DNA of 64,000 nucleotides from a virus (lineage: Duplodnaviria > Caudoviricetes): the IMG/VR virus record IMGVR_UViG_3300037067_027649, positions 1 through 64,000 of that record; one strand, given 5' to 3'. Under the pieces are notes generated by a model. That model worked only from the letters and a program-made list of their open reading frames with translations. It had not been told where the DNA came from and searched no databases. Below are positions 10,089 to 58,885 of the stretch, piece after piece (position 1 is the stretch's first letter; the number at the start of each line of letters is the position of its first letter). Both the position numbers and the translations under genes were made by a program.

Positions 10089-10436
10089 TCAAAACCCTAT
10101 TGGATAATCATTAAAATCAAATGTTAATTCAATATAATTATGATTTGTATTTATTAAATAATCATAAAAACCATTTTTACCTTTAAACTTATTTAATATA
10201 TTTTTTACTTTATTCCATTCATCTAAAGATATACCACCAATAGAATTTTCATTAAATGTTATTCTAACTTCATTTGTTTCTGGTTTAAAAGTAACTGTAT
10301 CTATACCTTCTCCAACAAAATCAAATATATCTCTTAAATTATCTTCAGATATAATTATTTCTTTATCTCCAATTTTGGATAATGATGTTAATTCTAAGAC
10401 TTGTTCGTTTAAAAAATCTTTAAAATTAGTTATCAT
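10089..10436 (-). CDS. Putative virion internal protein (capsid-targeting leader)
   Basis: Start moved to ATG 10436: MITNFKDFLNE. Confidence 0.65.
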   Translation of the reverse strand: MITNFKDFLNEQVLELTSLSKIGDKEIIISEDNLRDIFDFVGEGIDTVTFKPETNEVRITFNENSIGGISLDEWNKVKNILNKFKGKNGFYDYLINTNHNYIELTFDFNDYPIGF

Positions 10437-10437
10437 A

Positions 10438-10647
10438 TTAAACTCTTTCTTGTAACTTTTTAATAACTTCTTCAAGAACATACTGCGCTCTATATGGCAT
10501 TTCAGATGATATATTTCTTGTTCTATTATTTATAATAGCTGAGAATTCAGAAGCTAATTCTTCTGCTATTTCATCCAATTCTGGATATTTTGGATCATTA
10601 AGACTTTCTGATACGTTATATTCTGAATATTTTTTAATATTTTCCAT
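10438..10647 (-). CDS. Putative virion internal protein (capsid-targeting leader)
   Basis: MENIKKYSEYNVSES; TAATATATA upstream. Confidence 0.65.
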   Translation of the reverse strand: MENIKKYSEYNVSESLNDPKYPELDEIAEELASEFSAIINNRTRNISSEMPYRAQYVLEEVIKKLQERV

Positions 10648-10669
10648 ACTAAATACATTTATTTTTTAG

Positions 10670-10678
10670 TATATATTA
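10670..10678 (-). promoter_or_regulatory. Putative late promoter TAATATATA
   Basis: 23 nt upstream of ATG 10647. Confidence 0.6.
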
Positions 10679-11416
10679 AAAATTATTTTTTAAAAAATAT
10701 TTATCTTTTCTTTTTTCTAATTCTATTTCTTTATTATCTTCTATATTCCAGAAAAAATCAATATTAGTTTTTTGTTCAATCTCATCAATAGTAGTTTGAT
10801 AATTCAATATTTTGTTGTCTATATCATTATTATTTGGAAAAATAAAGCTTATTATTTTATTGTTAATATCATCATATATAATTTTATATAAATGTGTTGG
10901 AACTAAGATTTTATTTTCAACACCTATATAATTAGTAGAATCTAAATATATACCACCAGTTATTATATACAAATTATATTTAGTTTTTTTTACATAATTT
11001 CTGATATCATATTCAAGATATTTCCAAGTAAATCTATTTAATTTAGGTGTTTGAGGTAATATATTAGAAGTATAAAAAGATTCAAGCATAGCAACATGAG
11101 AAAAACACATATCTGCTGCAGGTGCAAGATGACCTCTATCATATCCACTATTAGTATAATCATTGTGTTTTGGTGTTCCTTCTAAAATAAACTTATCTTG
11201 AATGAAATAATTATATCTTTTGGTTGCTATACAATTAATTTCTGGATAAGATAATTCATAACAAACCCATTCAGAACTATTAATTTTTTTAACATAAGAT
11301 AATATATAGTTTTCATGCTTTAATACAGTGCCACAATTACTTGGAATATACTTATTATCTTGGGCGTTAACTGTATAAATTACAAAGAAAAATATTAAAA
11401 ATAATAAATTTTTCAT
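10676..11416 (-). CDS. DNA/RNA non-specific endonuclease (NucA/EndA family) with signal peptide
   Basis: SGYDRGHLAPAAD, FYTSNILPQ..LNR..W..LE; hydrophobic N-terminus. Confidence 0.9.
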   Translation of the reverse strand: MKNLLFLIFFFVIYTVNAQDNKYIPSNCGTVLKHENYILSYVKKINSSEWVCYELSYPEINCIATKRYNYFIQDKFILEGTPKHNDYTNSGYDRGHLAPAADMCFSHVAMLESFYTSNILPQTPKLNRFTWKYLEYDIRNYVKKTKYNLYIITGGIYLDSTNYIGVENKILVPTHLYKIIYDDINNKIISFIFPNNNDIDNKILNYQTTIDEIEQKTNIDFFWNIEDNKEIELEKRKDKYFLKNNF

Positions 11417-11482
11417 TATTAGTTTTGGTTTTTGTTATACAAAACTAATAATAAATTAGTTATAAAAAAAATATTTTTAAAA

Positions 11483-11770
11483 TTAGATGACTTCTATAAC
11501 TTTTCCATAAACTTGTTTTGTCCATCCGTTTATATTACCTTTATTATTACCTATTAAACAACCTCTATCATTATTCTTTGCTTTTACAAGATGTGTATAT
11601 AATCTTCCTTTAACTTTACAATATACAATATCACCTACATTAACATCTTCCCATTTAGCTGGTTCTAATACGTGTTCTTGTCCTGATTTAATTAATGGCA
11701 ACATTGAGTTACCTTTCTCTCTGGTTACAAACGTTTCACCATTGAGAAGTTTTTCTACTTTATAATTCAT
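11483..11770 (-). CDS. S24/S26 peptidase-like protein
   Basis: GNSMLPLIKSG and GDIVYC...HLVK. Confidence 0.65.
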   Translation of the reverse strand: MNYKVEKLLNGETFVTREKGNSMLPLIKSGQEHVLEPAKWEDVNVGDIVYCKVKGRLYTHLVKAKNNDRGCLIGNNKGNINGWTKQVYGKVIEVI

Positions 11771-11772
11771 TT

Positions 11773-12405
11773 TTAATTATTATATAAATTTTCTGATTTT
11801 TTTATAAAAATATTTTTAGTATCTAAATATTTTTCTAACATGAATTTTATTAAAATATAACTTTCACTATAATTTAAATTGAATTTTTTTGATAAAAATG
11901 TGAATATTTCATCATTTATAATATAATTATTATATTGTTTATCATGATTTATTATAGCTACATTATTTTTTTTATAAACTATTATTTTATCATTTAGTTT
12001 AGATTTAAATATATCTAAATCTTCTAATTTTTCTTTAAAATATTTTTCGCAATCTTTTTGTTCATTTTGATGTAAACCTATAATGTATTTTTCATAAATA
12101 TATATTTTAAATTCTCCTAATTTTTCTCTTATTTTATCATTTTCTATTAATAATAGTGAAATACCTTTATCTAATTTATTACTAAACATAATTGTTATTA
12201 TTTGATTTAAATAACTTCTAAATTCAATAGTATTTGGTAAATCACTTTCAAGTGCATATTTTACACCTTTAAAATAATTGTTTTTTAAAGATTGTGTAAA
12301 AATGTAAATATCTTTTTGAGAAAAAAGTTCTTTATCTATTTGTTCTACTGATTTAGGTATCATCTTATCTCTAAGACTTTCATTATATGTTTTCAAATAT
12401 TTCAT
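11773..12405 (-). CDS. Putative internal protein: leader, ankyrin-like segment and C-terminal family-D domain
   Basis: MKYLKTYNESLRDKMIPKS; first ~55 aa similar to 29656. Confidence 0.7.
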   Translation of the reverse strand: MKYLKTYNESLRDKMIPKSVEQIDKELFSQKDIYIFTQSLKNNYFKGVKYALESDLPNTIEFRSYLNQIITIMFSNKLDKGISLLLIENDKIREKLGEFKIYIYEKYIIGLHQNEQKDCEKYFKEKLEDLDIFKSKLNDKIIVYKKNNVAIINHDKQYNNYIINDEIFTFLSKKFNLNYSESYILIKFMLEKYLDTKNIFIKKSENLYNN

Positions 12406-12480
12406 ATAGCATATATATTTAAATAAATATATGTAAAAAATTATAACACTACATGTTTTATTTAATTTTATTATTTTAAA

Positions 12481-14740: not shown

Positions 14741-14749
14741 TAATATATA
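14741..14749 (+). promoter_or_regulatory. Putative late promoter TAATATATA
   Basis: 29 nt upstream of ATG 14778. Confidence 0.6.
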
Positions 14750-14777: not shown

Positions 14778-15599
14778 ATGTTAAATTATAAATTATTTGA
14801 AAATTTACAAAAAGCAAAAAAAGTTTTATTTGATCATAAAATACCTGAATCAAATCCAGATTTCATTAAGCTGAAAGACTTATTAAAAAATAATATGGGT
14901 TATATTGGTAAATTCACTGAATGGATGGTTGTTGATCATGAACCTTTTGATAAAATAAAAGATACTTTTATAGAATTACAAAATAATCCAATAAATAAAC
15001 CATTTGATAGTTTTAAAAAACTTGAAGAATTATATGATTATATTCAATCATATACTGGTGATAAAAAAGTAAATCAAATGTTAAAAGCATTACCATCAGG
15101 CACACGTTCATTTGCCGAAAAAAGTAAAGAATTGAAAGATTTATTAAAAATGAACATAAAATACACTAAAGCTATTGTAGATTTATATTCAAAAAAAGGT
15201 GGTAGATATAAAGAAATAAAAAAATTAATAAGTGATACTATTGATTATATTACAAATATAAGTGGTGATTTTAATTTAGAAAATATGTTAGAAAAAATAA
15301 AAGATTATAATGTTGAAATTATTGAAGCTAATCCTGAAATTTTAATGATAAAAGTTAATGATTATAAAGCTGCTCATGATTTAGGTTCAATACATTGGTG
15401 TATAAGTACATCAAAATCAACATTTGAACAGTATGCAAATGCTTTTACTGTTCAATATTTTATTTATGATTTTACTAAAAAAATATCTGATATAAGTCAT
15501 TTAATTGGTGCTACATTAAATCCAAATGGTGAAATAGCATATGCACATTATGCTGATGATTCTAAAGTAGAAGATTTATCTATTTTTGATGAATTATAA
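14778..15599 (+). CDS. Putative internal protein with WCIS motif
   Basis: Leader MLNYKLFEN; HWCISTSKSTFEQY segment. Confidence 0.7.
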   Translation: MLNYKLFENLQKAKKVLFDHKIPESNPDFIKLKDLLKNNMGYIGKFTEWMVVDHEPFDKIKDTFIELQNNPINKPFDSFKKLEELYDYIQSYTGDKKVNQMLKALPSGTRSFAEKSKELKDLLKMNIKYTKAIVDLYSKKGGRYKEIKKLISDTIDYITNISGDFNLENMLEKIKDYNVEIIEANPEILMIKVNDYKAAHDLGSIHWCISTSKSTFEQYANAFTVQYFIYDFTKKISDISHLIGATLNPNGEIAYAHYADDSKVEDLSIFDEL

Positions 15600-15609: not shown

Positions 15610-16443
15610 ATGAAAACTTTTAAACAATTTATATATGAAGGAAAACAAGTTGGATTATTATATCATTTTACTAATAATGAATCTTTAAATAAAATTTTAG
15701 ATGAAAATAAAATGATTGGTTCTTTTATGTATGAAGAAAACGGTAAAGATATATATGGTGTTTCTACAACAAGAAATAAAAATTTAAATTATGATTTTAA
15801 AAAAAATAATATACGAATTACTCTTGATGGTGATAAATTATCTAATAATTATAAAATTAAACCAAAAGATTATTGGTATAGACAATATAACATTCCATTC
15901 AACCCACAAACAGTAGATGAAGATGAAGAAACTATATTAACACCAAAAGGATATATATATAATATTAAAAATTATATAATATCAATTGATAATATTAAAA
16001 ATCAAAATTACATTAATGAAAATTCTAATAATGATAAAATAATATATCATTTTACTGAAAATATAGATTCACTATTATCTATTTTAGATAGTAATTCGTT
16101 ACAATCTGGTTCTTTTAATGGTAGATTTGGAAGAGGATATGAAAATATATCTTTTACTTGGAATCCTAATTTATGGGATATTGAATATGTTGGAGATATT
16201 GAAGAAAGATATAAAATAAGAATATCTTTTGATTATACTAAAATGAGTAAAAAATGGGAATTTAAACCATTTGATTATGGAATACCAGAAGAACAAGAAG
16301 AAATTGTAGAAGAAGAAGAAATGTATGGAATTTTAGAATACATTACTGAAATTTTAATTAGTTCTAAAGAATCTAAAAAAGAAGTTCAAAATTTAAAAAT
16401 TCGTTATCCAAAATTAAATATAAAAATAGTTAAAAGAAAATAA
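15610..16443 (+). CDS. Putative internal protein with two tandem ADP-ribosyltransferase-like domains
   Basis: Start moved to 15610: MKTFKQFIYE; duplicated YHFT...IL...S(T/F)T(R/W)N...KP.DY...EE.I. Confidence 0.6.
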   Translation: MKTFKQFIYEGKQVGLLYHFTNNESLNKILDENKMIGSFMYEENGKDIYGVSTTRNKNLNYDFKKNNIRITLDGDKLSNNYKIKPKDYWYRQYNIPFNPQTVDEDEETILTPKGYIYNIKNYIISIDNIKNQNYINENSNNDKIIYHFTENIDSLLSILDSNSLQSGSFNGRFGRGYENISFTWNPNLWDIEYVGDIEERYKIRISFDYTKMSKKWEFKPFDYGIPEEQEEIVEEEEMYGILEYITEILISSKESKKEVQNLKIRYPKLNIKIVKRK

Positions 16444-16636: not shown

Positions 16637-16721
16637 AACGGCTGCGTGTATGAAACGTAGCCACGCACAACACTTGATATAAACCACAGACCTTAATTGG
16701 CTATGTTTTATACACGATGTT
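16637..16721. other. attC-like hairpin recombination site
   Basis: AAC-GGCTG-CGTGTATGAAACGTAGCC ...36 nt... GGCTATGTTTTATACACG-AT-GTT; 18-bp arms, 16/18 complementary plus two G-T pairs. Confidence 0.7.
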
Positions 16722-17361
16722 AGCACCAGTACGGGTTATTTAGTGGAATTTTAAATTTGGAATATTTATATATAAAGATAAAACGATGAGTAAAGAAATA
16801 CGACAAATGATAGACAAAGTGAAAAACTTTAAACAATTTGTGAATGAACAACAAGAAATTGAAACCAATATAAATAATAATTTTAGAAAATGGTTTAGTG
16901 GTAGTAAAGTTGTTTATAATGGAAAACCATTACCTGTTTATCATGGTTCTCATTCTGATTTTGAAGAATTTATGGGTGATACATATTTCACAGATGATTA
17001 TATGAATGCTGACGGATATGCTGGTGGTGAATATGTATATGAGGTTTTTATATCAATAAAAAATCCACTAATTATTGATGCAAAAGATAGAAAATGGGAT
17101 GATATTGAAACCGAAGATGGTGTAACATCAACACAAGGTATTGTTGGTATGGTAGATAGAAGTAAATATGATGGGGTTATTTTTATTAACGTTAAAGATA
17201 GTTGGATAGATGATGTTGACTATCAAGATGCTTCAACCATATATGTTACATTTAAACCTAACCAAATTAAATCTATTGATAATGATGGAACTTGGGATAT
17301 AAATGATAATAACATATATTCATAATGCTTAATCGAAGCACTTCCGTAGTATTGGTGCTAA
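16639..17361 (-). mobile_element. Integron-like gene cassette (723 bp) inserted at a G|TT site
   Basis: Minus strand: G|TTAGCACC ... GGTGCTAAC-hairpin-G|TT; deleting it restores a gene end FNCLL* with TAATG coupling. Confidence 0.75.
16786..17325 (+). CDS. ADP-ribosyltransferase-like protein (ART-PolyVal type) with capsid-targeting leader
   Basis: VKNFKQFVNE; PLPVYHGS...YFTDD...A..YA...VYEVFI...NP...YDGVIF. Confidence 0.7.
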   Translation: MSKEIRQMIDKVKNFKQFVNEQQEIETNINNNFRKWFSGSKVVYNGKPLPVYHGSHSDFEEFMGDTYFTDDYMNADGYAGGEYVYEVFISIKNPLIIDAKDRKWDDIETEDGVTSTQGIVGMVDRSKYDGVIFINVKDSWIDDVDYQDASTIYVTFKPNQIKSIDNDGTWDINDNNIYS

Positions 17362-19594: not shown

Positions 19595-19987
19595 TTATTT
19601 ATAAATAGTTCCTATTTTAACTCGTTTATATGTTGGTACATCAATAAAATATGTTTCTTCTTTTGGTGTTATTATTTGTGCTATTGTATGATTTCTTCTT
19701 AATATTGCATCATAATAACTATCAATAATAATAGCTTTATAACCAACTGGCATATCTTCGCCATCATCTAAAATAGAATCATGAACATAATCATACATAT
19801 CATCACTTTTATTATTTTTAAAAAGTTCTTTATGTAAATTTCTTCTTTCTTCTGTTAGAATATTTATTTTTTTAGATGCTAATCTATGTTCTTCTGATCT
19901 AACATCAGTTTCCGCAAATCTATTAAGAGCATCAGATGTTTGATTTTCAAAATCTTTAAATGTGTTTATTAATTCTTCTATATTCAT
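19595..19987 (-). CDS. Hypothetical protein
   Basis: 130-aa ORF. Confidence 0.7.
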   Translation of the reverse strand: MNIEELINTFKDFENQTSDALNRFAETDVRSEEHRLASKKINILTEERRNLHKELFKNNKSDDMYDYVHDSILDDGEDMPVGYKAIIIDSYYDAILRRNHTIAQIITPKEETYFIDVPTYKRVKIGTIYK

Positions 19988-29254: not shown

Positions 29255-29263
29255 TAATATATA
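29255..29263 (+). promoter_or_regulatory. Putative late promoter TAATATATA
   Basis: Upstream of the leader-bearing pair 29308 and 29656. Confidence 0.6.
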
Positions 29264-29307: not shown

Positions 29308-29640
29308 ATGAAAAATGTTAATAATTTCAATGAACATCTATTTGAGAGTTCCGATTTAACAGTAGCTAAAGAAATATATAATCAACTTGGAAAAAAAGCC
29401 ATGTTTATGATGGGTGCAAAAAATATAGCTGGTGATAATAATTCTCTTTCTTTTAAAATAAGTGGATCACCTAAATATAATTTCATTAAAATAACTTTAA
29501 ATTCTTTAGATTTATATGATGTCAAATTTATAAAATATTTTAATTATAAAATAACAAGAGAAGTTGAAGTAAATAATGTTTATAATGATCAATTAAAAGA
29601 TGTTATAGAAAAAAATACTGGTTTATATTTAAGTCTTTAA
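29308..29640 (+). CDS. Putative internal protein, conserved mobile-element family
   Basis: Leader MKNVNNFNEHLFES; AKEIYNQLG...MMGAK...DLY...VYNDQL...TGLYLSL. Confidence 0.7.
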   Translation: MKNVNNFNEHLFESSDLTVAKEIYNQLGKKAMFMMGAKNIAGDNNSLSFKISGSPKYNFIKITLNSLDLYDVKFIKYFNYKITREVEVNNVYNDQLKDVIEKNTGLYLSL

Positions 29641-29655: not shown

Positions 29656-30258
29656 GTGTTGAAATATTTAAAATCATATAACGAATCACTAAGAGATAAA
29701 ATGAAACCAAAAAGTGATGAAGAAATTTTGAAAGATTTAGGTAAGTTATCACCAGAAGAAATGCTATTAACATCTATTAAAAATAATTATGTAAATGGTG
29801 TTAAAAAAGCTTTAGAAAGAGGTGTTAATATAAATAAAAAAAATGAACGTGATTATAATAGAACAGCTTTATTATATGCTTCTATATATGGATATAAAAA
29901 TATTGTTGAAATTCTTCTTAAAAATGGTGCTGATATTAATATTCAAGATGTAAATGGTTGGACAGCTTTAATATTTGCTTCAAATCATGGTCATAAAGAT
30001 ATTGTTGAAATTCTTCTTAAAAATGGTGCTGATGTTAATAAAAAAATATTTAATGGTGAAACAGCTTTAATGTCAGCATCAAATAAAGGTTATAAAGAAA
30101 TAGTTGAATTATTATTAAAACATGGTGCTGATATTAACATAACAAATAAATTTGGTTATACAGCTTTATACTATGCTTCATTAAAAAAATACAAAGCTTT
30201 AATAAAAGAATACAAAGAAATAATTGAATTATTAAAAAAATATGGTGCTAAAGAATAA
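29656..30258 (+). CDS. Ankyrin-repeat protein with capsid-targeting-like leader
   Basis: About four repeats of G.TAL..A...G...IVE.LL..GAD.N; KYLKSYNESLRDKM leader. Confidence 0.9.
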   Translation: MLKYLKSYNESLRDKMKPKSDEEILKDLGKLSPEEMLLTSIKNNYVNGVKKALERGVNINKKNERDYNRTALLYASIYGYKNIVEILLKNGADINIQDVNGWTALIFASNHGHKDIVEILLKNGADVNKKIFNGETALMSASNKGYKEIVELLLKHGADINITNKFGYTALYYASLKKYKALIKEYKEIIELLKKYGAKE

Positions 30259-36469: not shown

Positions 36470-36483
36470 TAATATATATATTA
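36470..36483. promoter_or_regulatory. Palindromic TAATATATATATTA (late motif on both strands)
   Basis: Between divergent starts 36446 and 36500. Confidence 0.55.
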
Positions 36484-36499: not shown

Positions 36500-37033
36500 T
36501 TGAAAACATATAATCAATTTTTATACGACATTTTTACAGAAAAGTATGATAAACAGTACAATTATTACATGAACAGATATAAATATTATTTTATTAATCA
36601 ATATTCATTGACAATAAAAAATATATTTCCAATAATATCTCTTTTATTTTATAATGAATTTACAGAAAAATTAAATAAAGATTATATAGTAAGATATACA
36701 TTAATAGCATTATGTTCAATACTAAACGAAAGAGAAGATGTTATAAGATTATTAAAAAAAGATATAATGGGAGAATTTAATGAAAATTTAATTGAAAATA
36801 TAAGATTAACAATACTTACAATATTAGAACTTTATAAGAAAATAGAAAAAAAAGATATTTATTATTTAGATATATTTAAAGATACAAGGAATTTTATATC
36901 TTTTTTAATAATAATGTTTGAATTCATAAAACAAAATAATTTTAAATATATTGATTTTATTAAATATAAAGATAATATAGATAATGTAATTTTAGATAAA
37001 ATAAAGAAAAAATATAATAATATAAATAAATAA
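36500..37033 (+). CDS. Hypothetical protein with capsid-targeting-like leader
   Basis: TTG start; KTYNQFLYD. Confidence 0.6.
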   Translation: MKTYNQFLYDIFTEKYDKQYNYYMNRYKYYFINQYSLTIKNIFPIISLLFYNEFTEKLNKDYIVRYTLIALCSILNEREDVIRLLKKDIMGEFNENLIENIRLTILTILELYKKIEKKDIYYLDIFKDTRNFISFLIIMFEFIKQNNFKYIDFIKYKDNIDNVILDKIKKKYNNINK

Positions 37034-39150: not shown

Positions 39151-39159
39151 TAATATATA
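39151..39159 (+). promoter_or_regulatory. Putative late promoter TAATATATA (second copy at 39092)
   Basis: Upstream of the tail sheath gene. Confidence 0.65.
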
Positions 39160-39192: not shown

Positions 39193-42100
39193 ATGCCAAT
39201 CAAGGATTTAGGTAAGTACAAAAGACCAGGTATTTTCATCGAAGAAATTGACAACTCATTAGTTGAATTACCTATTCAAGATGTGTTAATTAATTTAGTT
39301 CCTGGATTTTCAAAAAAGGGACCAGTTAATAATCCTGTATATATTGATAACACAGTCGATTTTGAAAAAATATTTGGAACATTAGATAAACAACTTGAAA
39401 ATAAAGGTTCGTTTTTTCACAGAACATCATTACAAATGTTAAAATCTGGCCCAATTTGGGCTTTGAATCTATTAAAAACTGATCCAACAAGAGATAAGTT
39501 AAATTGGAAATCTATTTCAGTATCAGCTATGTATAAAAATGGTACATTAAAACAAGATGCTTATGAAAGATTTTTTAATAGACAAGATTTTTGGACAAGA
39601 GATTCAGAATCTTTTATGGATTTAGTTAATGATCCAACACCTGAAAATGATAGATTATTACATTTAACTAATATGGGTGATAAAACAATCACTGTGTTTT
39701 TATTTAAATCTTCTATTACAGGTTTTGATGTAACAGCAGAAAATTGGTATGTTGGTTCAGTTAATGTACCTTCATATATTGATCCTAAAGATTATATTTC
39801 TGATTATATGGTAGATGTATTAATTTTAGCTGGTGATTGGACTGATTATAATACATTAAGTGTTGATACTACATGGAGTAGATATTTTACATCAACAGGT
39901 CTTATTAAAGAAAAAGTAGAAGATTTTGTTAATGAAAAAAATGTTACTGTTGTAGCAAATTATGATGCATGTTTAATACCTAAATTTAGAGATAAAGATG
40001 GTAGAGATATGTATATTAAAAATGTTATTAATAATGATACTGATAAAACTGGTTTATTCTGTGCATTTAACGAAGATGTTTTATATGCAGCAGATTTTCA
40101 AGAAGGTAAAATTGACTTACTTGGTAATACATTAGTTGGTTCAGAAATTGATGAAATAGAATTTTTATCATATAAAGAAACTTTAACAGAAGCTATCACA
40201 TATACACAAAAATATTTAGATAGTGCTGCTAACGTTTTTAGTTTTACACCTGATTTTGGTTCAGTTGATCAAAGAACAGGTACTTATACAAATTGGATAA
40301 CATATGGTTTAACATATACAAGTGTTTCTGGTCAAACTATATCTTTTTCTGTAGATTCGTCATCATCTTATTATGTATTAGGTGGTAATAAAATAACATT
40401 TGCTTTAACTGGAACATCAGCATATAATATAGTTCTTGATGATATAACAGATAATACAAGAAGAGTAGATCAATTATATTTAACAACAGATAATACAAAA
40501 ATTCAAGTGTTAAAAGGTTATGAATTACCTACATCTGGTGTATTTACATTACCAAATTATAGTGTTAATAATGAAGATACTATTCATTTAGGTTATGTTT
40601 TAGTTGAAAAAAATACTGGTGTTACGTCATTATTTTATACGGGTGTAACTGTTGATGATTCTGGTTATATGCCATTACAAACAGGTTCTACTGGTATACT
40701 TGGTATGAATATAGTTTCTGATTTAAATAAAATAACTATTGAATTTTATGAAACATATGGAACTAAAGATTTAACAGATTATAAATCATTAAGATATTAT
40801 AAAATATTTGATGAACTTGCTTTAAATATAGAAGGTGGTAAAGCTGTTATTATAAATAATTCAACACAAGATAAATATGAAATTGGTACAAATTATCAAA
40901 TTTCAGATTCCACAGCAACATCTAATTGTAAAATTAGTTTATATGTTGATAGTGCAGCTAATTATGATATAACAGGTTTGTTAATTTATTATGTAGATAA
41001 TGAGTTTTATTTAACTAATACAACTAATAGTATGAAAACTCAGAATAATGTTGGTACTACAACAATAGGTGGAAGAATTATGGGTACTGTTGCTAAATAT
41101 TCAACATTCTATCAAAATTTCTATGATGGTGTTATTAATTCATTAGATTATTTTGTTGTTGATAATGTTGATCCATCAGCAAGTGGTGCTACAAGAGTTT
41201 ATGTTAGACCTTTCTTAGATGCTAATGGTATTTTAACTGTTGATTTTAGAGGTAGTAAAGATCAAACAGCAGGTTTAATAACAACATCAACTTGGACAAG
41301 TGGATATGAATCAAAATTAATTATATATTCAGAGAGAAATAATTGGAAACAAACTCTTGAAATTGAATTACCTTTATCAACAACAGATTTTACTAAAATA
41401 ACACAAGTTAGTGTTGATAAAAATAGATATCCAGAAGTTAGTAAAGGTTCTTATTTAGAAGCTTATGTTGATGAAACTGATGTTGATGTGGAATCTGGTG
41501 AGAAAAAACCAAGAAGAATGACAAGAATTGTTAAAACTACTATTGATCCAGCTAATTCTAATTATAAAATTCTTTATACAGATGCACCAATAAAAGTAGA
41601 AGATAATGATCTTTCAGGTAATACAGATTATATAACAACTGTATATCCTTCAATTGATATTTATGTAACTGATTATAAAGGCGTATCATTAACACCATTT
41701 AAAATTCATATTGATTCAATTCCTAACGGTACTGAAACAAGACAAGCTGATATTTTAAGTGTAATAGGTGTTAATGCAACAAGTTCTTTAGCAAAAGGTT
41801 TAGTAAATAAAAATAAAATATCTTGGAGATATTTGGTTGATTCATTTGGTTTAGGTTTAATAGAAAATTCTAAACAAGAATTTATGTCACTTTGTGGTAA
41901 AAAATTAAATTGTTTAGGTTTCTTAAATATGCCATCTGCAAGAATGTTTAGAAAATCTAATAATCCAAGTTTTGTTAATGATGATGGTTCATTAAATTTA
42001 GAGTATGTTATGAATGGTGGAGATGAAAATAAAAATCCATCATTTTTATACAGTTTTGGTATTGGAGTTGGTGAAACATGTGTTGGTTATTTTTTCCCAT

Positions 42101-42720
42101 ATGTTAAGAACAATACTGATGGTGATGAAAAAATGGTTCCACCTGCAGCTTTTGTTGCAACAACATACATGCAGAAACATATATCAACTGTTGCTGGTAT
42201 ACAACCTTGGACTATTGCAGCAGGTTTACAAAACGGTGGTGTTTCTATAAGTGGAACTGAAATGGACTTTACTAATGAAGATTTAGAATTTTTATATCAA
42301 ATGAACGCTAATCCAATTGTTCGTGATATTAGAAGCGGTTACTATATCAATTCAGAAAGTACAGCACAAGTTAATCCAACAACATCATTAAGTTATATTC
42401 ATAGTAGAGAAGTTCTTATTGAACTTGAAAACGACCTTTATGATATGTTGTTAAGATATCAGTGGAGATTTAATACACCTTCTGTTCGTGCTGAAATTAA
42501 ATATAGAGCAGATAAAATCTGTAAAGAATATATGGATGCTGGTGCTTTGTATGATTTTAGAAACATTATGGATGAAACTAATAATACATCTGAAATTATT
42601 GACACACAAAAAGGTGTATTGGATACTTATGTTGAAATCGTTAAAGGTATGGGTATGATTATTAATAATATTACAATATTAGGTGTTGGTAAAATTTCTT
42701 CAAGTGGTTTTGCTGCTTAA
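39193..42720 (+). CDS. Contractile tail sheath protein
   Basis: RPGIFIEEID, PGFSKKGPVN, PWTIAAGLQNG, LYQMNANPIV, YIHSREVLI.LE, FNTPSVR, LDTYVEIVKG. Confidence 0.92.
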   Translation: MPIKDLGKYKRPGIFIEEIDNSLVELPIQDVLINLVPGFSKKGPVNNPVYIDNTVDFEKIFGTLDKQLENKGSFFHRTSLQMLKSGPIWALNLLKTDPTRDKLNWKSISVSAMYKNGTLKQDAYERFFNRQDFWTRDSESFMDLVNDPTPENDRLLHLTNMGDKTITVFLFKSSITGFDVTAENWYVGSVNVPSYIDPKDYISDYMVDVLILAGDWTDYNTLSVDTTWSRYFTSTGLIKEKVEDFVNEKNVTVVANYDACLIPKFRDKDGRDMYIKNVINNDTDKTGLFCAFNEDVLYAADFQEGKIDLLGNTLVGSEIDEIEFLSYKETLTEAITYTQKYLDSAANVFSFTPDFGSVDQRTGTYTNWITYGLTYTSVSGQTISFSVDSSSSYYVLGGNKITFALTGTSAYNIVLDDITDNTRRVDQLYLTTDNTKIQVLKGYELPTSGVFTLPNYSVNNEDTIHLGYVLVEKNTGVTSLFYTGVTVDDSGYMPLQTGSTGILGMNIVSDLNKITIEFYETYGTKDLTDYKSLRYYKIFDELALNIEGGKAVIINNSTQDKYEIGTNYQISDSTATSNCKISLYVDSAANYDITGLLIYYVDNEFYLTNTTNSMKTQNNVGTTTIGGRIMGTVAKYSTFYQNFYDGVINSLDYFVVDNVDPSASGATRVYVRPFLDANGILTVDFRGSKDQTAGLITTSTWTSGYESKLIIYSERNNWKQTLEIELPLSTTDFTKITQVSVDKNRYPEVSKGSYLEAYVDETDVDVESGEKKPRRMTRIVKTTIDPANSNYKILYTDAPIKVEDNDLSGNTDYITTVYPSIDIYVTDYKGVSLTPFKIHIDSIPNGTETRQADILSVIGVNATSSLAKGLVNKNKISWRYLVDSFGLGLIENSKQEFMSLCGKKLNCLGFLNMPSARMFRKSNNPSFVNDDGSLNLEYVMNGGDENKNPSFLYSFGIGVGETCVGYFFPYVKNNTDGDEKMVPPAAFVATTYMQKHISTVAGIQPWTIAAGLQNGGVSISGTEMDFTNEDLEFLYQMNANPIVRDIRSGYYINSESTAQVNPTTSLSYIHSREVLIELENDLYDMLLRYQWRFNTPSVRAEIKYRADKICKEYMDAGALYDFRNIMDETNNTSEIIDTQKGVLDTYVEIVKGMGMIINNITILGVGKISSSGFAA

Positions 42721-44673: not shown

Positions 44674-45237
44674 ATGGGATTACCACATTTCACAAACGTT
44701 GACTCACATATGAATAAATGGGAAGTTATTCATAAAAATTTATATGAAGTTGATATAATATTACCTGCTGCAATTCAAGCTTTACATCCAAATGCAACTC
44801 ATTTGTTATTGGAGAATACAACCGAAATAAACATGCCAAAATATCCATCTTTAGGTAAAGCACAACAGAGATTTAAATATTCAACGAGATTGTTCACTAT
44901 GATGCCAGAATCAACATCATTTGAAGATTTAACAATCAAATTAAATTTAAATCAAAATGAACAGAAACAAATTTTCAATTTTAGGATGATGAAAGATTGG
45001 TACGATCTTGCATGGAATAATGAGGATGGTTCTACATCATATAAAAGAAATATGACAGGTGATGTTATTATTTACCAACATGATAAACAAGGTGAAGTTA
45101 TAAGAAGGGTTACATGTCATAATGCTATGATATACGATTTCGGTGGTGTTGAAGATTTAGTATGGGAAGATACTGCAGCGATTATGGATTTGACTTGTAA
45201 GTTTTATGTTGATTATTGGGAAGATTTCTATTTTTAA
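44674..45237 (+). CDS. Tail tube protein (T4 gp19-like)
   Basis: 187 aa after the sheath gene; WYDL.WN...G...YKR...GD..IYQHDKQG.VIR. Confidence 0.8.
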   Translation: MGLPHFTNVDSHMNKWEVIHKNLYEVDIILPAAIQALHPNATHLLLENTTEINMPKYPSLGKAQQRFKYSTRLFTMMPESTSFEDLTIKLNLNQNEQKQIFNFRMMKDWYDLAWNNEDGSTSYKRNMTGDVIIYQHDKQGEVIRRVTCHNAMIYDFGGVEDLVWEDTAAIMDLTCKFYVDYWEDFYF

Positions 45238-46197: not shown

Positions 46198-47157
46198 ATG
46201 AATAATAATGAGAAAGAACATCAAGAATATTTAGATAATTTTCTAAATAATACATCTGATAATATACAATCTATTAAAAAGGATGTTAAAAAAATGTCTA
46301 ATAAATCTCAAAATATGCAAGATTCTAATTATTTAGAATATATTAATGTATCTATTGATATGTTACCAGCAGGTAATTTTTATAAAAAAGGAACTCAAAT
46401 AAAAATTAGAGGTGCAAAAGTAAATGAAGTTCAGAATTATTCAGTTGTAGATGATAATAATTATTTAGATATAACTGAAAAGATGAATGAAATGTTATCA
46501 AGTTGTGTTAGGTATATTCATCCTGATGGTAGTGTTGGTTCTTATAAATATGTGAAAGATGCAGATAGAATTTATTTAATATTTATGATAAGAGAATTAA
46601 CGTTTCAAAGAGGTAATTCATTAGCAAAAGATGTTGTTTGTGAACATTGTAAACATGAATTTAAAATACCATTTAGAGCAACACCAAGTCCAAATCAACC
46701 AAGAACGTTTGTTAATTATCCAATGCCAGAAGAATTAAATAAGTTTTATGATGATATTGAAAAAGTTTATAAATTAGTTATAAATGATGTTGAATGGAAA
46801 CTTGCACCACCAACAATTGGAATTCAAGAAATATTTTTTGGTGATATAAAGAAAAAAGTAACTAATGAAAAAACACCAAATGTATCTTTTTTAAAAATAA
46901 TTCCATATTTATTGTATGATAGAGAAAAAATATCTGATGAAGGTATTGCTGCAAAAGAAAAAGAATTTCAAAATATGGATATGGACACATTTCAAATTTT
47001 AAATTATGCTGTTGATAAAATGAAATTTGGTGTAGAAAAATTAAAAATGAAATGTCCAGAGTGTAGTTTGGAGGTCTACACTGGAATGCAGTTTCCTGGG
47101 GGTGCATCAAGAATTTTCGTTGTTTCAAACCCACTTAGTTACTTTACTAAAGAATAA
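46198..47157 (+). CDS. Baseplate hub / tail assembly protein (T4 gp26-like)
   Basis: LPAGNFY..GT.IKIRGAKV.E, DRIYLIFMIRELT, CEHC and CPEC motifs; follows the tube gene. Confidence 0.65.
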   Translation: MNNNEKEHQEYLDNFLNNTSDNIQSIKKDVKKMSNKSQNMQDSNYLEYINVSIDMLPAGNFYKKGTQIKIRGAKVNEVQNYSVVDDNNYLDITEKMNEMLSSCVRYIHPDGSVGSYKYVKDADRIYLIFMIRELTFQRGNSLAKDVVCEHCKHEFKIPFRATPSPNQPRTFVNYPMPEELNKFYDDIEKVYKLVINDVEWKLAPPTIGIQEIFFGDIKKKVTNEKTPNVSFLKIIPYLLYDREKISDEGIAAKEKEFQNMDMDTFQILNYAVDKMKFGVEKLKMKCPECSLEVYTGMQFPGGASRIFVVSNPLSYFTKE

Positions 47158-47469: not shown

Positions 47470-48828
47470 TTAAAAATTATTTACATCTGTAAATTTAGTA
47501 TTTTTGTTTATAATTTTTGTAATATCAGATAATATTTTTTTATCTTCAATTGATAATTTAGATATATCTAAATTTTCCCATATATCATCAGATATAATAT
47601 AATTATAAAATTTATAATCTTTATCATCTTTATTGTTATCAATTTCAACAACAATTTGCAATATTTGGTTATCAATTCTATTATAAATTGATATATCTGA
47701 AATGATACCATTTAAAAATGGTTTATTTAAAAAATTATAAAAAACTTTTTCACTAAATTTTAAATTATTATCAGTTTTAATGTTAGATAAATTCAAAAAT
47801 TCATTCATATCTTCTTCTTTAATTTCTTCATCTTTAATATCATAAATTCTCATACTACCATCACCATCCCAACCAAATGGTTTTTTATATTCTTTATCAC
47901 CATCAGGATCAACCATAATGGTAAAGCTATGGCCTATATTCCCTATACTTTTTATATGATTTAACATTTTAATAAGAATATCTGCACCAGAAGCATCAGT
48001 TTCTATTGTAATTTTATGATTTAACTGTTCTTCTCTATTTTCATATTGTTGTTTAGCTGGAATAACATAACCAATCTTATTTCTTTCATCCCAACACATG
48101 ATAAGTTCATGTTCAGTTTCAAATAACATTAAAGAATTTTTAGCATCATCACTTAAATTTTGATTTCCACTATCAGACCATGTTAAATATTCATCTTTAT
48201 CATAAAAACAATGTGAAAAACTAGCTGAAAAATATTTTTGATTTTCTACAAATTTAACTAATTCGTCTTTATTTGTAAATTTTATAGCATTTTTATTTTC
48301 AGATAAAATTTTTATAGCATCTGGAATTAAAGGTAAAACAAGTGTTCTATTATTGTATTTATTTACATAAATATTATCATTATCTTTTTCAGTTTCACCA
48401 TCAGCTATAAAAAGTTCATTTATTTCATCTTTTGATTCTTTAAACTTAATATTATGTTTTTTTAATAATTCTCTTGCTTCTTCTTTTGTCATACCGCCCA
48501 TAACTTTAGCCATAACATCATTAGTATTTAAAACTTTTTTAGCAACTTGAATTTGATTCCATAAAGCTGGATTCGTATTTTTTAAATTAACACTTTCGTT
48601 AATTATTTTTTTAAAATTTTCTGGATTATGAAAATATTTATCATCTTCAAATTTTAACCAATCAGACATATAATCAATACTTTTAATAGTATGTTTAGTT
48701 CCAATTTTTAATGATCTTTTTTCATCATCAGATGTATCATCTTTAACGACTTCAACAGTATCTCCAACTTTAAATTTAGGTTTTTTACTTTCATTTACAC
48801 TAAATTCAGAAAATTTTTTTAATGACAT
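47470..48828 (-). CDS. Multidomain putative internal protein (leader, SH3/KOW-like domain, unknown domains)
   Basis: MSLKKFSEFSVNES; KFKVGDTVEVV...LKIG.K.TI..ID. Confidence 0.75.
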   Translation of the reverse strand: MSLKKFSEFSVNESKKPKFKVGDTVEVVKDDTSDDEKRSLKIGTKHTIKSIDYMSDWLKFEDDKYFHNPENFKKIINESVNLKNTNPALWNQIQVAKKVLNTNDVMAKVMGGMTKEEARELLKKHNIKFKESKDEINELFIADGETEKDNDNIYVNKYNNRTLVLPLIPDAIKILSENKNAIKFTNKDELVKFVENQKYFSASFSHCFYDKDEYLTWSDSGNQNLSDDAKNSLMLFETEHELIMCWDERNKIGYVIPAKQQYENREEQLNHKITIETDASGADILIKMLNHIKSIGNIGHSFTIMVDPDGDKEYKKPFGWDGDGSMRIYDIKDEEIKEEDMNEFLNLSNIKTDNNLKFSEKVFYNFLNKPFLNGIISDISIYNRIDNQILQIVVEIDNNKDDKDYKFYNYIISDDIWENLDISKLSIEDKKILSDITKIINKNTKFTDVNNF

Positions 48829-48862: not shown

Positions 48863-49462
48863 TTAATAATTAATTTCTTTCTTAAAATCTTTATCGTAAC
48901 CTATAAATTTTTTATTTTTAAAAAGTTTTGCTAATTCTAAAATATCATTAGATACTTTTTTACTCATATAAAAATCTCTACAAAAATTTTCTACAAATTC
49001 TTCTTCATCTTCAAATTGTAATACATTACTATCTTCATTAAATATATAAACGTTATCAATATCAACCATAGCATGACCTAATTCATGAAAAATAGTTTCT
49101 TTAATTATTAAATCTTTTTCTTCATCTATTTCTTCTTTATTATTAAGACTTTCTAATTCTTTTATTATAGAATCTTCATATAATAATATTATTGGTTCAC
49201 CAGCTAATGAACTTGAATGAACATATTCAGCTATTGTATTACTTTTATCTTTTTCGATCCATAATATATGTATTTTTTTAAAAATATTTATTTTTGATTT
49301 AAATTCATCAATAGCTTCTTTAGCTATAATATCAAAAGATAAATCTTTAGATTTTTCTTTTAAATCATATACATAAGATAATTCATTTACTATTCTATCT
49401 TTTGAACTGGTAATATTAATATAATTGTTATTAAAATTTTCAAATGTTTTAATAAAATTCAT
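48863..49462 (-). CDS. HExxH metallopeptidase-like putative internal protein
   Basis: Leader MNFIKTFENF; TIFHELGHA and downstream EEEFVE.F. Confidence 0.7.
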   Translation of the reverse strand: MNFIKTFENFNNNYINITSSKDRIVNELSYVYDLKEKSKDLSFDIIAKEAIDEFKSKINIFKKIHILWIEKDKSNTIAEYVHSSSLAGEPIILLYEDSIIKELESLNNKEEIDEEKDLIIKETIFHELGHAMVDIDNVYIFNEDSNVLQFEDEEEFVENFCRDFYMSKKVSNDILELAKLFKNKKFIGYDKDFKKEINY

Positions 49463-49481: not shown

Positions 49482-49493
49482 TAATATATATTA
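49482..49493. promoter_or_regulatory. Palindromic TAATATATATTA (late motif on both strands)
   Basis: Between divergent starts 49462 and 49513. Confidence 0.6.
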
Positions 49494-55783: not shown

Positions 55784-55790
55784 ATATTTT

Positions 55791-56054
55791 TTAAAATAAT
55801 AGATTAATACTTTTTGCTCTCATATAAGCTTGTGCAAGATGATCATCAAATAAACCTTTTTTTATTGACATTTTAGCAAAAATTAATCCAGATTTATAAT
55901 CTGATGGTTCATTACTAAACCTTGCTAATACTGTAGGTATTTGTTTAATTTTATCACAAAAATATAAATCTGCGCCATTAAAATTACCTAAAAATTTGCA
56001 ATAGTCACAATCATGCTTAAATTTTGGTTTTTGATTACTTGTTAAATTTTCCAT
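55791..56054 (-). CDS. Conserved hypothetical phage protein
   Basis: KPKFKHDCDYCKFLG....DLYFC...TVLARFSNEPSDY.SG. Confidence 0.75.
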   Translation of the reverse strand: MENLTSNQKPKFKHDCDYCKFLGNFNGADLYFCDKIKQIPTVLARFSNEPSDYKSGLIFAKMSIKKGLFDDHLAQAYMRAKSINLLF

Positions 56055-56059
56055 AATAT

Positions 56060-56269
56060 TTATTTTAAAATTTGTTTTATTTTATCTTTTCTTAATTCGG
56101 ATACTTTTTTATATACGGTGTCATTTGTACATTTAACATTTTTATTTTCAATACAATTAATAATATTTAATGAACAACCACCACAAAGACCATAAAAACT
56201 TTCAGATTCTTTTTGTCGAACTAATTTATATTTAACCCCATCAATAATTATATTATTATTTTTTATCAT
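56060..56269 (-). CDS. Cys-rich family F protein with tag
   Basis: IDGVKYKLV...CGGC...ELRKDKIKQI. Confidence 0.75.
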   Translation of the reverse strand: MIKNNNIIIDGVKYKLVRQKESESFYGLCGGCSLNIINCIENKNVKCTNDTVYKKVSELRKDKIKQILK

Positions 56270-56472
56270 TTAATATTTTTTTTTATTTTAGATTTACGTA
56301 TATCAGATAATTTTTTATATATTGTGTTATATTCGCATTTAATATTTTTAACATTAAGACAACTATATCCTTCAATATTAAATGAACAACCTTCACACAC
56401 TCCATCATTTATCGTTTGTTTTACTAGTTGATATTTAATGCCATCAACAATTATATGATTTTTTTTAGTCAT
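56266..56472 (-). CDS. Cys-rich family F protein with tag
   Basis: VDGIKYQLV...CEGCSF...DIRKSKI. Confidence 0.75.
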   Translation of the reverse strand: MTKKNHIIVDGIKYQLVKQTINDGVCEGCSFNIEGYSCLNVKNIKCEYNTIYKKLSDIRKSKIKKNIK

Positions 56473-56695
56473 TTAATATTTGATTTATTTTAAATTTTCT
56501 GATATTTTTTAACATTTTATAGTTATAATCTCTACCGCAAGTTATACCAAGTCTTATACATGATGGTAAAGAAAAAGCACATCCTTCACATGTGCAATAT
56601 TTTGTCATATTTTTAATATATGCAATATTATTTATGAATATTATATCTTCACTTTTCATTAAATAATTTTTTAATTTTTTCTTCTCTGAAATCAC
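56465..56695 (-). CDS. Cys-rich family F protein with tag
   Basis: CEGCAF...NIRKFKINQI. Confidence 0.7.
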   Translation of the reverse strand: MISEKKKLKNYLMKSEDIIFINNIAYIKNMTKYCTCEGCAFSLPSCIRLGITCGRDYNYKMLKNIRKFKINQILND

Positions 56696-57648: not shown

Positions 57649-57653
57649 ATTTT

Positions 57654-57909
57654 TTAGATATTTAATTTTTTACAAATTTCATCAACACACTCATCATTTA
57701 ATTCACAAAAATTTCTTTTAATATTATCTTTAGATAAAGGTATATCTAAAATATTAAACATTTCAACTAAAAATGATATACCAACATCAAATACAGCTTC
57801 TGCTTCATCTTTAGAAACCCCCTTGGATGTATAATTTACCGCAGGTTTTACTTTTTTTTTCGTAAAAACTTTCTAATATTTTAATTTTATTTTCTACTTC
57901 TGTTGACAT
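57654..57909 (-). pseudogene. Small gene with +1 frameshift in an A9 run
   Basis: MSTEVENKIKILESFYEKK then shifted frame VKPAVNYTSKGVSKDEAEAVFDVG... Confidence 0.55.
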
Positions 57910-57929
57910 GTTTATTTGTATTTATTATA

Positions 57930-57937
57930 CAAATTTA
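57930..57937 (-). promoter_or_regulatory. Bacteroidota-type -7 element TAAATTTG
   Basis: 21 nt upstream of ATG 57909. Confidence 0.5.
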
Positions 57938-58008
57938 TAAAAATATTAACAAATAAAAAAATTATTCATATAATATTTTCATAAAATAGTGAAAATAAGT
58001 GTTTTTTA

Positions 58009-58266
58009 TTAAAAAAGTTTTAATTGATTTGGATTATCGTTTGGTTCTATTGTGTTATCCATTAGTAATTTTAAAAAATAATCAGCAGCATTATTGGCTA
58101 TAATGTGTTTATCTGTTCTATTTAAGTGCTTCTTTCCAGTTTTTTCTTTATACCATCTTTCACAATCTATATAAGCCATAGCAATATTAGCTTTCCAACC
58201 ATAGTAATATTCTTGGTCTTTTTTTAATTCTTTACTTAATCTTAATATAACATGCCTAATACTCAT
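58009..58266 (-). CDS. Hypothetical phage protein
   Basis: YYYGWKANIAMAY.D...AN.AA..FL.LL. Confidence 0.75.
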   Translation of the reverse strand: MSIRHVILRLSKELKKDQEYYYGWKANIAMAYIDCERWYKEKTGKKHLNRTDKHIIANNAADYFLKLLMDNTIEPNDNPNQLKLF

Positions 58267-58304
58267 AAATTATTATATTCATAAAATATTATTTTGTTTA
58301 ATTT

Positions 58305-58313
58305 TAATATATA
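58305..58313 (+). promoter_or_regulatory. Putative late promoter TAATATATA
   Basis: 24 nt upstream of ATG 58337. Confidence 0.6.
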
Positions 58314-58336
58314 ATAAAAAATATTTTATTTTTGTT

Positions 58337-58885
58337 ATGTATGTAAAATTATTCGAAAAATTCAATGAAAAATGGTATCATGGTTCAAAAGAATATTTTA
58401 CCGAATTTAAATTGAAAAAAGGTACTTTATTGGATTATAATTATATAGCTCCTATATTTTTAACAAGTGATAAAGAATTTGCTAAAGAACATGCAGGTTA
58501 TAAAACACCTTATATTTATGAAATTGAAGTTTTAACTGACAATATTTTTGATTATAAAAAATTACCATCTGGTTATAATCTAATGTATTATGTAGAAGAT
58601 AATATTAAAAAAGATAATAAAGATTATGAATTAGGTAAAAAATTATACATGGATATTTTTTTAGAAAATATTGATGTTAAACCATATTCATATCAAGATG
58701 TTGATGAATTATATAGTAGAATTATTACTGGTGATTATTGTTATTTAGAAGAAGTTTGGTTTTATGAGTGGTTAAAATTTAATAATTTTGATGGTGCTTA
58801 TATTAATGAAACAGGTGCTAAAAATTTATATATTTTTAACCCAAATGATTTAAAAATAATAAATGTGGAAAAATTAAATTATTAA
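58337..58885 (+). CDS. ADP-ribosyltransferase-like protein with capsid-targeting leader
   Basis: MYVKLFEKFNE; WYHGS...IFLTSD..FA..HA...IYE.EV...FDGA. Confidence 0.68.
   Translation: MYVKLFEKFNEKWYHGSKEYFTEFKLKKGTLLDYNYIAPIFLTSDKEFAKEHAGYKTPYIYEIEVLTDNIFDYKKLPSGYNLMYYVEDNIKKDNKDYELGKKLYMDIFLENIDVKPYSYQDVDELYSRIITGDYCYLEEVWFYEWLKFNNFDGAYINETGAKNLYIFNPNDLKIINVEKLNY

Follow-up and report, generated by a model that had tools for sequence, protein, structure and literature searches.

Why would a dozen or more otherwise unrelated genes on a short piece of one phage genome begin with the same kind of leader? The question is raised by the first 64,000 nucleotides (hereafter the window) of the 78,963-bp contig IMGVR_UViG_3300037067_027649 from IMG/VR, a sequence of about 20% G+C that derives from an uncultured megaphage of the Mahaphage group. 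At least 12 genes between positions 10,089 and 58,885 encode an N-terminal leader of 8-14 residues, which has the form M-K-x-[L/I/F]-K-x-[F/Y]-(E/x)-x-[F/Y] and ends near a glutamate. All 12 N-termini quoted in an earlier note on this DNA are present in the sequence, three of them as internal or alternative starts of the longest open reading frame (ORF), and its count of about 12 stands as a minimum for the window while being an undercount for the whole contig, which carries about 20. The explanation that we regard as probable is that the leader-tagged proteins are packed into the virion and injected together with the DNA by means of a T4-type tag and protease, and those consequences of this explanation that were tested computationally all came out as it predicts.

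The tail sheath of the phage shares 49% identity with its counterpart in the 735-kb uncultured phage LR756501, and the figure rises to 65% for the sheaths of two IMG/VR genomes (640 and 676 kb). The 640-kb genome (G002), which has direct terminal repeats, is the closest complete relative and serves below as the main point of comparison.

The leader and its statistical support

Loose motifs of this kind are expected by chance because this proteome is rich in K, I, N, F, Y and E. On the 79-kb contig, a pattern derived a priori from T4, [FY]xx[FY]x0-3[ED], occurs at 26 N-termini against 12.4 expected from internal positions (P 5e-4). A position matrix was also built from the N-termini of related phages, with this contig left out and the columns for Met1 and Lys2 removed; 14 N-termini of the contig reach at least 8 bits, against 1.1 expected from internal windows or 1.6 from shuffled N-termini, and with a flexible register all 12 N-termini of the window score between 9.4 and 16.6 bits. 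In the 640-kb relative, 75 genes are tagged where 5-8 are expected, amounting to about 8% of its genes and spread across nearly all 20-kb bins, and the pattern counts for relatives, taken over 78 loci that flank the sheath gene (19-35% G+C), come to 176 against 71 and 62 against 7. Among control phages the leader is found on 2 of 102 genes of Tenacibaculum phage PTm1 and on none of 35 genes of Lak-C1 (26% G+C), and this near-absence argues against an effect of base composition. PTm1, considered as a possible cultured tag-bearing relative, was rejected on the same count.

Relation to the capsid-targeting sequence of T4

It has been demonstrated that the capsid-targeting sequence of T4 is a propeptide of 10-20 residues that guides proteins into the prohead and is cut off by gp21 (PMC5694885; PMC3012670). 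When the matrix trained on megaphages was run over 150 kb of T4 (234 ORFs), the genes ipI, ipIII and ipII occupied ranks 2, 3 and 4, and the chance that three named ORFs fall within the top four of 234 is about 2e-6 by our own arithmetic. This result places the megaphage leader in the same sequence class as the T4 internal proteins' capsid-targeting sequence, so that the description of the leaders as T4-like in the earlier note is well founded: otherwise unrelated proteins share a brief N-terminal leader that belongs to the MKT[Y/F]x[E/Q]F class. The leaders of Alt, gp24, gp67 and gp68, which are of a different type, were not picked up by the T4 scan. Rank 1 went to gp61.1 (N-terminus MKTFKEFIKE), a hypothetical protein of 54 residues that outscores all three internal proteins and could be an unrecognised T4 protein bearing a capsid-targeting sequence.

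The resemblance to IPI, IPII and IPIII (and to Alt) goes beyond a leader of roughly ten residues on unrelated proteins, since in both systems an ADP-ribosyltransferase (ART) is among the cargo and the cargo set is variable, and relatives of this phage possess a T4-type portal, a gp23-type capsid protein and a gp21-family protease. The differences are equally clear. About four proteins are tagged in T4 (IPI, IPII, IPIII and Alt), whereas about 75 are tagged in the 640-kb relative and about 20 on this contig; the T4 leader reads MKTYQEFIAE, whereas the commonest form here is MK[Y/H]LKLFE.F, with a variable position of the glutamate; the internal proteins of T4 are basic and the cargo here is acidic; and in the relatives of this phage the protease is fused to the scaffold. 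The promoter of T4 is TATAAATA, whereas that of the megaphage system, which is known from sequence alone, is TAATATATA.

Probable expression of tagged genes with structural genes

The motif TAATATATA lies 19-47 nucleotides, typically 19-28, upstream of the genes for the tail sheath, the tail tube and a hub-like protein, as well as of most tagged genes, and its presence at the sheath gene marks it as a structural-gene promoter. Its number in the window (20, against 13.6 in shuffles) is not above chance; its placement is distinctive, given that 18 of 28 sites on the contig are 5-50 nucleotides upstream of a start on the same strand, compared with 9.2% for 60 permuted 9-mers (P 1e-12). Most relatives keep the extended form T-TAATATATA 30-45 nucleotides upstream of the sheath gene, and the 640-kb relative has it upstream of its capsid gene as well. 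Leader and promoter are associated, with an odds ratio of 8.1 on the contig (P 2e-4) and of 2.6 in the 640-kb relative, or 4.5 when counted by operon (P 2e-9), which supports co-expression with structural genes.

The promoter assignments made previously were borne out, with exact copies 21-44 nucleotides upstream of 10647, 14778, 29308, 36500, 48828, 49462 and 58337, one-mismatch copies upstream of 12405 and 16786, and the genes starting at 10436, 15610 and 29659 directly following a promoter-bearing gene. Six tagged genes sit inside operons and have no promoter of their own, and the structural genes that carry the promoter have no leader; thus the leader does not belong to a promoter cassette and does not serve as a signal for translation. 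The evidence for expression together with structural genes is at the level of sequence, from which we infer that the tagged genes are transcribed late.

An A-rich, AAAAAATAAT-like stretch follows TAATATATA. The late-type genes of the window (14700-58340) have no Shine-Dalgarno sequence and show this A-rich element (consensus about AAAAAATAAT) 5-20 nucleotides before the start codon; upstream of the sheath gene the element is conserved across relatives. Candidates for the factors that recognise TAATATATA are encoded by two paralogous genes at 32192-33655 and 33814-34674; the longer one matches a family of RNA polymerase sigma factors (phrog_1740, 9.7e-18).

A portable leader on diverse candidate cargo

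The tagged proteins belong to at least 12 unrelated families, and 6-40 residues separate the leader from the start of the Pfam or PHROG domain. ART-PolyVal domains start at residue 13, 27 or 45, a NUDIX domain at residue 40, and the Tox-ART-HYD1 domain about 6 residues past the leader; the phrog_9437 domain of 29308-29640 begins at residue 18, so that the leader of this protein is an addition to it. In each of 97 ART-PolyVal homologs from public data, the domain begins at the same F-x-x-W-F-G-x-S-K-V-V-D block; 17 of the 97 bear this leader, some begin directly at the domain, and others have different extensions, several of which end in [F/Y]-[L/I/V]-N-E. The leader is a portable add-on to unrelated domains.

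The contig encodes two confirmed ART-PolyVal proteins, one ART-PolyVal-like protein, and a Tox-ART-HYD1 protein with a paralog. Membership of ART-PolyVal (PF18760), which includes YHG[S/T] at the domain start, is established for 16786-17325 (69.2 bits against a cut-off of 31.2) and the family is also matched by contig positions 64471-65142 (95.3 bits), whereas 58337-58885 scores 26.5 bits, under the cut-off, and is classed as ART-PolyVal-like. The product of 15610-16443 exceeds the gathering threshold of Tox-ART-HYD1 (PF15633), and its paralog at contig positions 65168-66064 was found by BLAST only. The ankyrin protein belongs to a four-member family with a common longer N-terminal module, shared by 11773-12405, 29659-30258 and two paralogs on the contig. 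Further tagged proteins of the contig are NUDIX, DUF6576 and GP88 proteins and about ten proteins that have no match. The tagged set of the 640-kb relative also includes Acb3-like, SprT-like and ASCH proteins, and 67 of its 75 members have no Pfam family. One of them (G002 536538-537245, leader MKNIKLFE) carries a domain of Acb3, an inhibitor of the cyclic-oligonucleotide-based antiphage signalling system (CBASS), at a Pfam E-value of 2.7e-26. About half of the tagged genes of the contig have no homolog in the 640-kb relative or in the sheath-flanking loci of relatives, and where homologs exist they are mostly tagged.

Published work describes Alt as an ART that is made late and packaged, and places ARTs among the polyvalent proteins that are injected (PMC5512222). 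For ARTs expressed from a structural-gene promoter, the most sensible reading is that they are carried into the next cell, like Alt of T4. The polyvalent proteins (Iyer et al. 2017, PMC5512222) resemble the present set in that their typical components, ART-PolyVal and NUDIX domains among them, are predicted to accompany the DNA on injection, and a relative of this phage has two ART modules in one chain; they differ in being giant polypeptides, whereas here mostly separate small genes each have their own address tag. In reports on phage P1, the anti-restriction Dar proteins are described as accessory anti-defence or host-modifying proteins that reside in the capsid and are delivered with the DNA (PMC9024508, PMC12810830), a likeness that would extend to the tagged proteins if they are packaged. 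Homology to Dar was not seen here. We know of no short N-terminal tag shared by the Dar proteins.

A D-P-[F/Y]-G-E-E-x-W motif that follows the leader in some relatives was considered as a further element and set aside, being present neither on this contig nor in the closest relative. In LR756501, a short protease paralog ends in V-Y-N-E-L-D-P-Y-G-E-E-N-W, and several cargo proteins from this lineage have the L-D-P-Y-G-E-E-N-W block after their leader.

Head module and protease

Because the contig represents only about 11% of a genome according to CheckV, the head module was checked in relatives only. In the 640-kb relative, three adjacent genes encode a Portal_T4 protein (230.6 bits), an 804-residue Peptidase_S80 protein and a Gp23 protein (99.4 bits). 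The 804-residue protein is a protease-scaffold fusion, with the protease domain in its first ~215 residues, that scores 27 bits for Peptidase_S80 against a cut-off of 23.4; its protease family comprises 1470 homologs at E <=1e-5, many of them with PF03420, and tblastn with this protease retrieves proteins annotated as prohead core proteases in T4-like cyanophages, coliphages, PTm1 and others. A phmmer search of the protease domain against PDB sequences returned nothing, and the family was settled by Pfam and tblastn. The same fusion is encoded by LR756501, together with the short protease paralog. Judging from these matches, the clade has a T4-type head module with a protease of the gp21/gp175 type.

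Behind the protease domain, the scaffold region of the 640-kb relative contains about 13 Y-[I/L/V]-A-E repeats ([FYW][LIVM]xE), against 1.1 in shuffles, and these appear to resemble both the multiple gp21 sites of the T4 scaffold proteins and the F-I-A-E end of the T4 leader. The idea that the leader is itself one copy of the scaffold repeat was rejected: despite a common aromatic-x-x-aromatic-[L/I/V]-x-E pattern, the repeats score 2-5 bits with the leader profile, which is not beyond background.

The phages phiKZ, 201phi2-1 and SPN3US, whose protease (gp175/gp245) belongs to Peptidase S80, are likewise giant phages with many head-internal proteins, and the protease of the 640-kb relative reaches the cut-off of that family. 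The phiKZ-type protease is of the same superfamily and cuts after glutamate (PMC5694885). Its propeptides, which belong to head and ejection proteins, are mostly 80-160 residues long and different in each protein, whereas here a short, shared T4-type leader of about 10 residues is found.

Leader ends and possible cut sites

A hydrophobic-x-Glu motif occurs within residues 6-21 of all 12 proteins except that of 36500 (for example F-L-N-E, F-I-Y-E, F-V-N-E, S-V-N-E, Y-N-E and L-F-E), such motifs being common in this composition. Two joints between domains are suggestive of cut sites. Two tagged ART genes beyond the window (contig positions 65142-64471 and 66064-65168) correspond to one fused protein of 446 residues in the 640-kb relative, and the second ART module comes after D-N-I-N-E when fused and after the leader F-L-L-E when split, which puts [I/L]-x-E directly before the same Y-K-N-[I/L]-G start. 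Similarly, the protein of 15610 has an internal N-Y-I-N-E ahead of its second module, which is a stand-alone tagged gene in another relative. General processing of polyproteins was rejected, as internal cut-like motifs are not enriched and just these two joints resemble cut sites.

Interpretation of the leader

If the leader acts as the capsid-targeting sequence of T4 does, tagged genes would be transcribed late from TAATATATA, the promoter that also serves the sheath, tube and capsid genes, and the leader would dock each new protein onto the scaffolding core of the prohead. A prohead protease of the gp21/gp175 type, fused to a scaffold rich in Y-[I/L]-A-E, would then remove the leader after hydrophobic-x-Glu, and the mature proteins would stay inside the head and reach the next host along with the DNA, where ART, ankyrin and NUDIX proteins may act before any phage gene is expressed. 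Packaging, docking, leader removal and injection are all steps that we infer from the sequence features described above.

Several observations weigh against this scheme. Some 8% of all genes as cargo would be far more species than in any phage studied to our knowledge, and the clade is uncultured. Portal, scaffold, capsid and protease genes were all not found on the 79-kb contig. The net charge per 100 residues in the 640-kb relative is -2.1 for tagged proteins and 0 for the rest, unlike the basic internal proteins of T4, and just about 55% of its tagged genes lie in promoter-headed operons. The position of the glutamate is not fixed, given that Asp is the last residue of the 36500 leader and that F-E-N is read in several others; the scaffold repeats match the leader profile poorly, as noted above; and internal [FYW][ILV]xE and [ILV]NE motifs of tagged proteins show neither enrichment nor consistent depletion.

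Some of these points are also those that favour a different explanation, which we consider unlikely, namely that late-made proteins acting in the producing cell have the leader as a common N-terminal helix and are not packaged. Such a helix might dock on a common partner or chaperone, keep toxic enzymes inactive or time their turnover, and it would accommodate an acidic cargo, the approximately 45% of tagged genes in the 640-kb relative that have no recognisable late promoter, the very large number of species (75 per genome) to be packaged and the lack of a fixed cut site. It does not explain why the leader profile selects exactly the packaged internal proteins of T4, why host-takeover enzymes such as ARTs would be made late, which is sensible only if they are carried to the next cell as Alt is (PMC5512222), or why leaders and domain joints end in hydrophobic-x-Glu, the context cut by this protease family. 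Composition is a far weaker contender. A genome of 20% G+C, rich in K, I, N, F and Y, in which chance would supply about 12 copies of the loose motif on its own and an A-rich element rather than a Shine-Dalgarno sequence precedes the starts, might produce such leaders incidentally, through its extreme A+T content or because the first codons are selected for translation initiation in a host that lacks Shine-Dalgarno sites. This is very improbable in view of the excess over shuffled N-termini, the presence of the leader in relatives at 31-33% G+C, its near-absence from the two control phages and its absence from structural genes with the same promoter and 5' region, and the exchanges between F and Y and between L and I, along with synonymous codon differences, point to selection on the protein.

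Many unrelated proteins that bear a single short tag are likewise what a multi-substrate maturase would have as its targets, and relatives encode 3-9 radical S-adenosylmethionine (radical-SAM) proteins, so that the leader could be the recognition tag of a modifying enzyme, similar to the leaders of ribosomally synthesised and post-translationally modified peptides. We give this little credence, since a match to PF04055 is absent from the 79-kb contig in spite of about 20 tagged genes (radical-SAM being the sole enzyme class searched), the tagged genes of the 640-kb relative are spread over nearly every 20-kb bin rather than around one enzyme, the radical-SAM genes of relatives are not located where the dispersed tagged genes are, and the tag is degenerate, with no fixed 16-17-mer. 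Equally remote is the idea that promoter and first codons form the conserved 5' end of mobile cassettes, kept for recombination, with a peptide that has no function. Fast turnover of the cargo, with about half of the tagged genes lacking a homolog in the 640-kb relative, a G+C-rich inverted repeat around 16786-17325 and the known variability of the internal-protein loci of T4 would fit it, whereas the six tagged genes within operons have no promoter of their own and the leader DNA is conserved no further than the peptide requires; moreover, mobility of this kind is compatible with a targeting function and hence no true alternative. The inverted repeat comprises 15 nucleotides (TGTTAGCACCAGTAC at 16718-16732 and GTATTGGTGCTAACA at 17349-17363, 93% complementary) and brackets the ART-PolyVal gene together with its promoter variant, which looks like a mobile cassette.

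Implications of the proposed packaging and injection

The mechanism proposed here is that of T4, with the same class of tag and the same head machinery; what is new in comparison with T4 is a roughly tenfold larger number of cargo species, a different dominant leader form, an acidic cargo and the fusion of protease and scaffold. None of the papers in the collection searched linked capsid targeting with megaphages. In its broadest form, the proposal is that megaphages of this clade use a T4-type tag to send to the capsid some 70 different proteins per genome, which amount to about 8% of their genes, with about 20 of them on this 79-kb piece. This would be by far the largest protein arsenal injected by any known phage and would include several ARTs, NUDIX proteins, Acb3-like anti-signalling proteins and ankyrin binders, with modules freely split, fused and exchanged at the protease site; we hold this to be possible, at slightly less than an even chance.

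If true, an address tag of 10 residues would reveal from sequence which proteins of uncultured megaphages travel in the virion, and dozens of 'hypothetical proteins' per genome would resolve into a definite set of first-strike effectors and of candidates for anti-defence roles. The capsid-targeting mechanism of T4, described for few proteins of one model phage, would extend to the largest phage genomes at a roughly ten-fold scale, and large cargo sets with fast turnover would help to explain part of genome gigantism. Since the tag is of the same class as that of T4, T4 itself could serve as a test bed for both the tag and the cut site.

Leader-bearing genes, promoters and neighbouring genes

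Table 1. Leader-bearing genes, promoter motifs and structural genes of the window. Scores in bits refer to the leader matrix unless a family is named.
Feature	Position	Strand	Details
Candidate cargo gene, function not assigned	10089..10436	-	Leader MITNFKDFLNE from ATG 10436; 13.6 bits
Small candidate cargo gene	10438..10647	-	Leader MENIKKYSEYNVSE; 10.0 bits
Motif TAATATATA	10670..10678	-	22 nt upstream of 10647
Candidate cargo gene	11773..12405	-	Leader MKYLKTYNE, then conserved SLRDKMxPKS block; 11.8 bits
One-mismatch motif			Only 6 nt upstream of 12405
Motif TAATATATA	14741..14749	+	28 nt upstream of 14778
Candidate cargo gene, viral family of unknown function	14778..15599	+	Leader MLNYKLFEN; 13.9 bits
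Candidate cargo gene, Tox-ART-HYD1	15610..16443	+	Leader MKTFKQFIYE; Pfam 27.8 bits, cut-off 25
Candidate cargo gene, ART-PolyVal ADP-ribosyltransferase	16786..17325	+	Leader KVKNFKQFVNE behind 7-11 extra residues; 15.7 bits
Weak extra candidate (INTFKDFEN)	19595..19987	-	11.7 bits; within minus-strand operon, no promoter motif; outside the counted set
Weak extra candidate	21412-21624		Second of two in the window beyond the 12
Motif TAATATATA	29255..29263	+	44 nt upstream of 29308
Candidate cargo gene	29308..29640	+	Leader MKNVNNFNE; phrog_9437 domain from residue 18; 9.4 bits
Candidate cargo gene, ankyrin repeats	29659..30258	+	Probable TTG start, leader MKYLKSYNE; Pfam Ank 118.8 bits
Motif TAATATATA	36470..36478	+	21 nt upstream of 36500; palindromic, also faces 35901-36446
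Candidate cargo gene	36500..37033	+	TTG start, leader MKTYNQFLYD; 9.8 bits
Motif TAATATATA	39151..39159	+	33 nt upstream of tail sheath gene; second copy at 39092
Tail sheath, 1175 residues, no leader	39193..42720	+	phrog_34521 at 7.8e-95
Tail tube, no leader	44674..45237	+	phrog_45; exact motif 47 nt upstream
Weakly baseplate-hub-like protein, no leader	46198..47157	+	phrog_36717, phrog_150 (E 7.8e-4); exact motif 22 nt upstream
Candidate cargo gene, 452 residues, function not assigned	47470..48828	-	Leader MSLKKFSEFSVNE; 11.4 bits
Motif TAATATATA, exact	48850-48858		21 nt upstream of 48828
Candidate cargo gene, weak DUF4344 match	48863..49462	-	Leader MNFIKTFENF; 16.6 bits
Motif TAATATATA, exact	49485-49493		22 nt upstream of 49462
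Motif TAATATATA	58305..58313	+	23 nt upstream of 58337
Candidate cargo gene, ART-PolyVal-like	58337..58885	+	Leader MYVKLFEKFNE abuts WYHGS domain start; 15.1 bits

The annotated starts at 10436, 15610 and 29659 needed correction. The ATG at 10436 sits one base past the stop of the upstream gene, 10438-10647, with which 10089-10436 is co-transcribed, and the protein has neither a Pfam nor a PHROG match. The ATG at 15610 is 11 nucleotides past the stop of 14778-15599, and the TTG at 29659 yields a leader of the same form as in the paralogs. The leader of 36500 shares its first four residues with that of T4, and its TTG start stands at the usual spacing from the promoter motif. A search of the ESM Atlas found a function neither for 14778-15599 nor for 47470-48828. 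Between 64 and 79 kb, the contig contains 11 more candidate N-termini, for example MITKFKIFES, MKTYEQF, MKYLKLYEEF and MKHIKKYNDFLVED; 8 of the 11 reach at least 8 bits.

The gene at 8110-9333, which starts with MKTYQIRIF, was dropped from the set, as this is the ordinary N-terminus of its family, the IS200/IS605-type TnpB-like transposases (phrog_506, 1.9e-58). Its first five residues equal those of the T4 leader by coincidence, which calls for caution about matching by eye.

With regard to the rest of the contig, the sheath, the tube and the weakly hub-like protein are accompanied by an NAD-dependent DNA ligase, sigma-factor-like proteins, the TnpB-type transposase and several homing endonucleases. 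The host is probably a member of the Bacteroidota, with which the missing Shine-Dalgarno sequences upstream of genes are consistent. A megablast search with 20 kb against a phage collection gave zero matches, and Rfam found nothing over the window. Insertions of paralogous homing endonuclease genes of HNH/GIY-YIG type (42821-44613, 59847-60941 and 62974-64000) separate the sheath gene from the tube gene and occur at other places too. The gene at 60975-62843 encodes a protein of 622 residues with an Hsp70/DnaK-like N-terminal motif (IGIDLGTT) that matches phrog_22485, a family of unknown function, at 1.6e-235, and on the minus strand two tandem arrays (55388-56695 and 58896-59497) encode small, Cys-rich paralogs of 64-87 residues.

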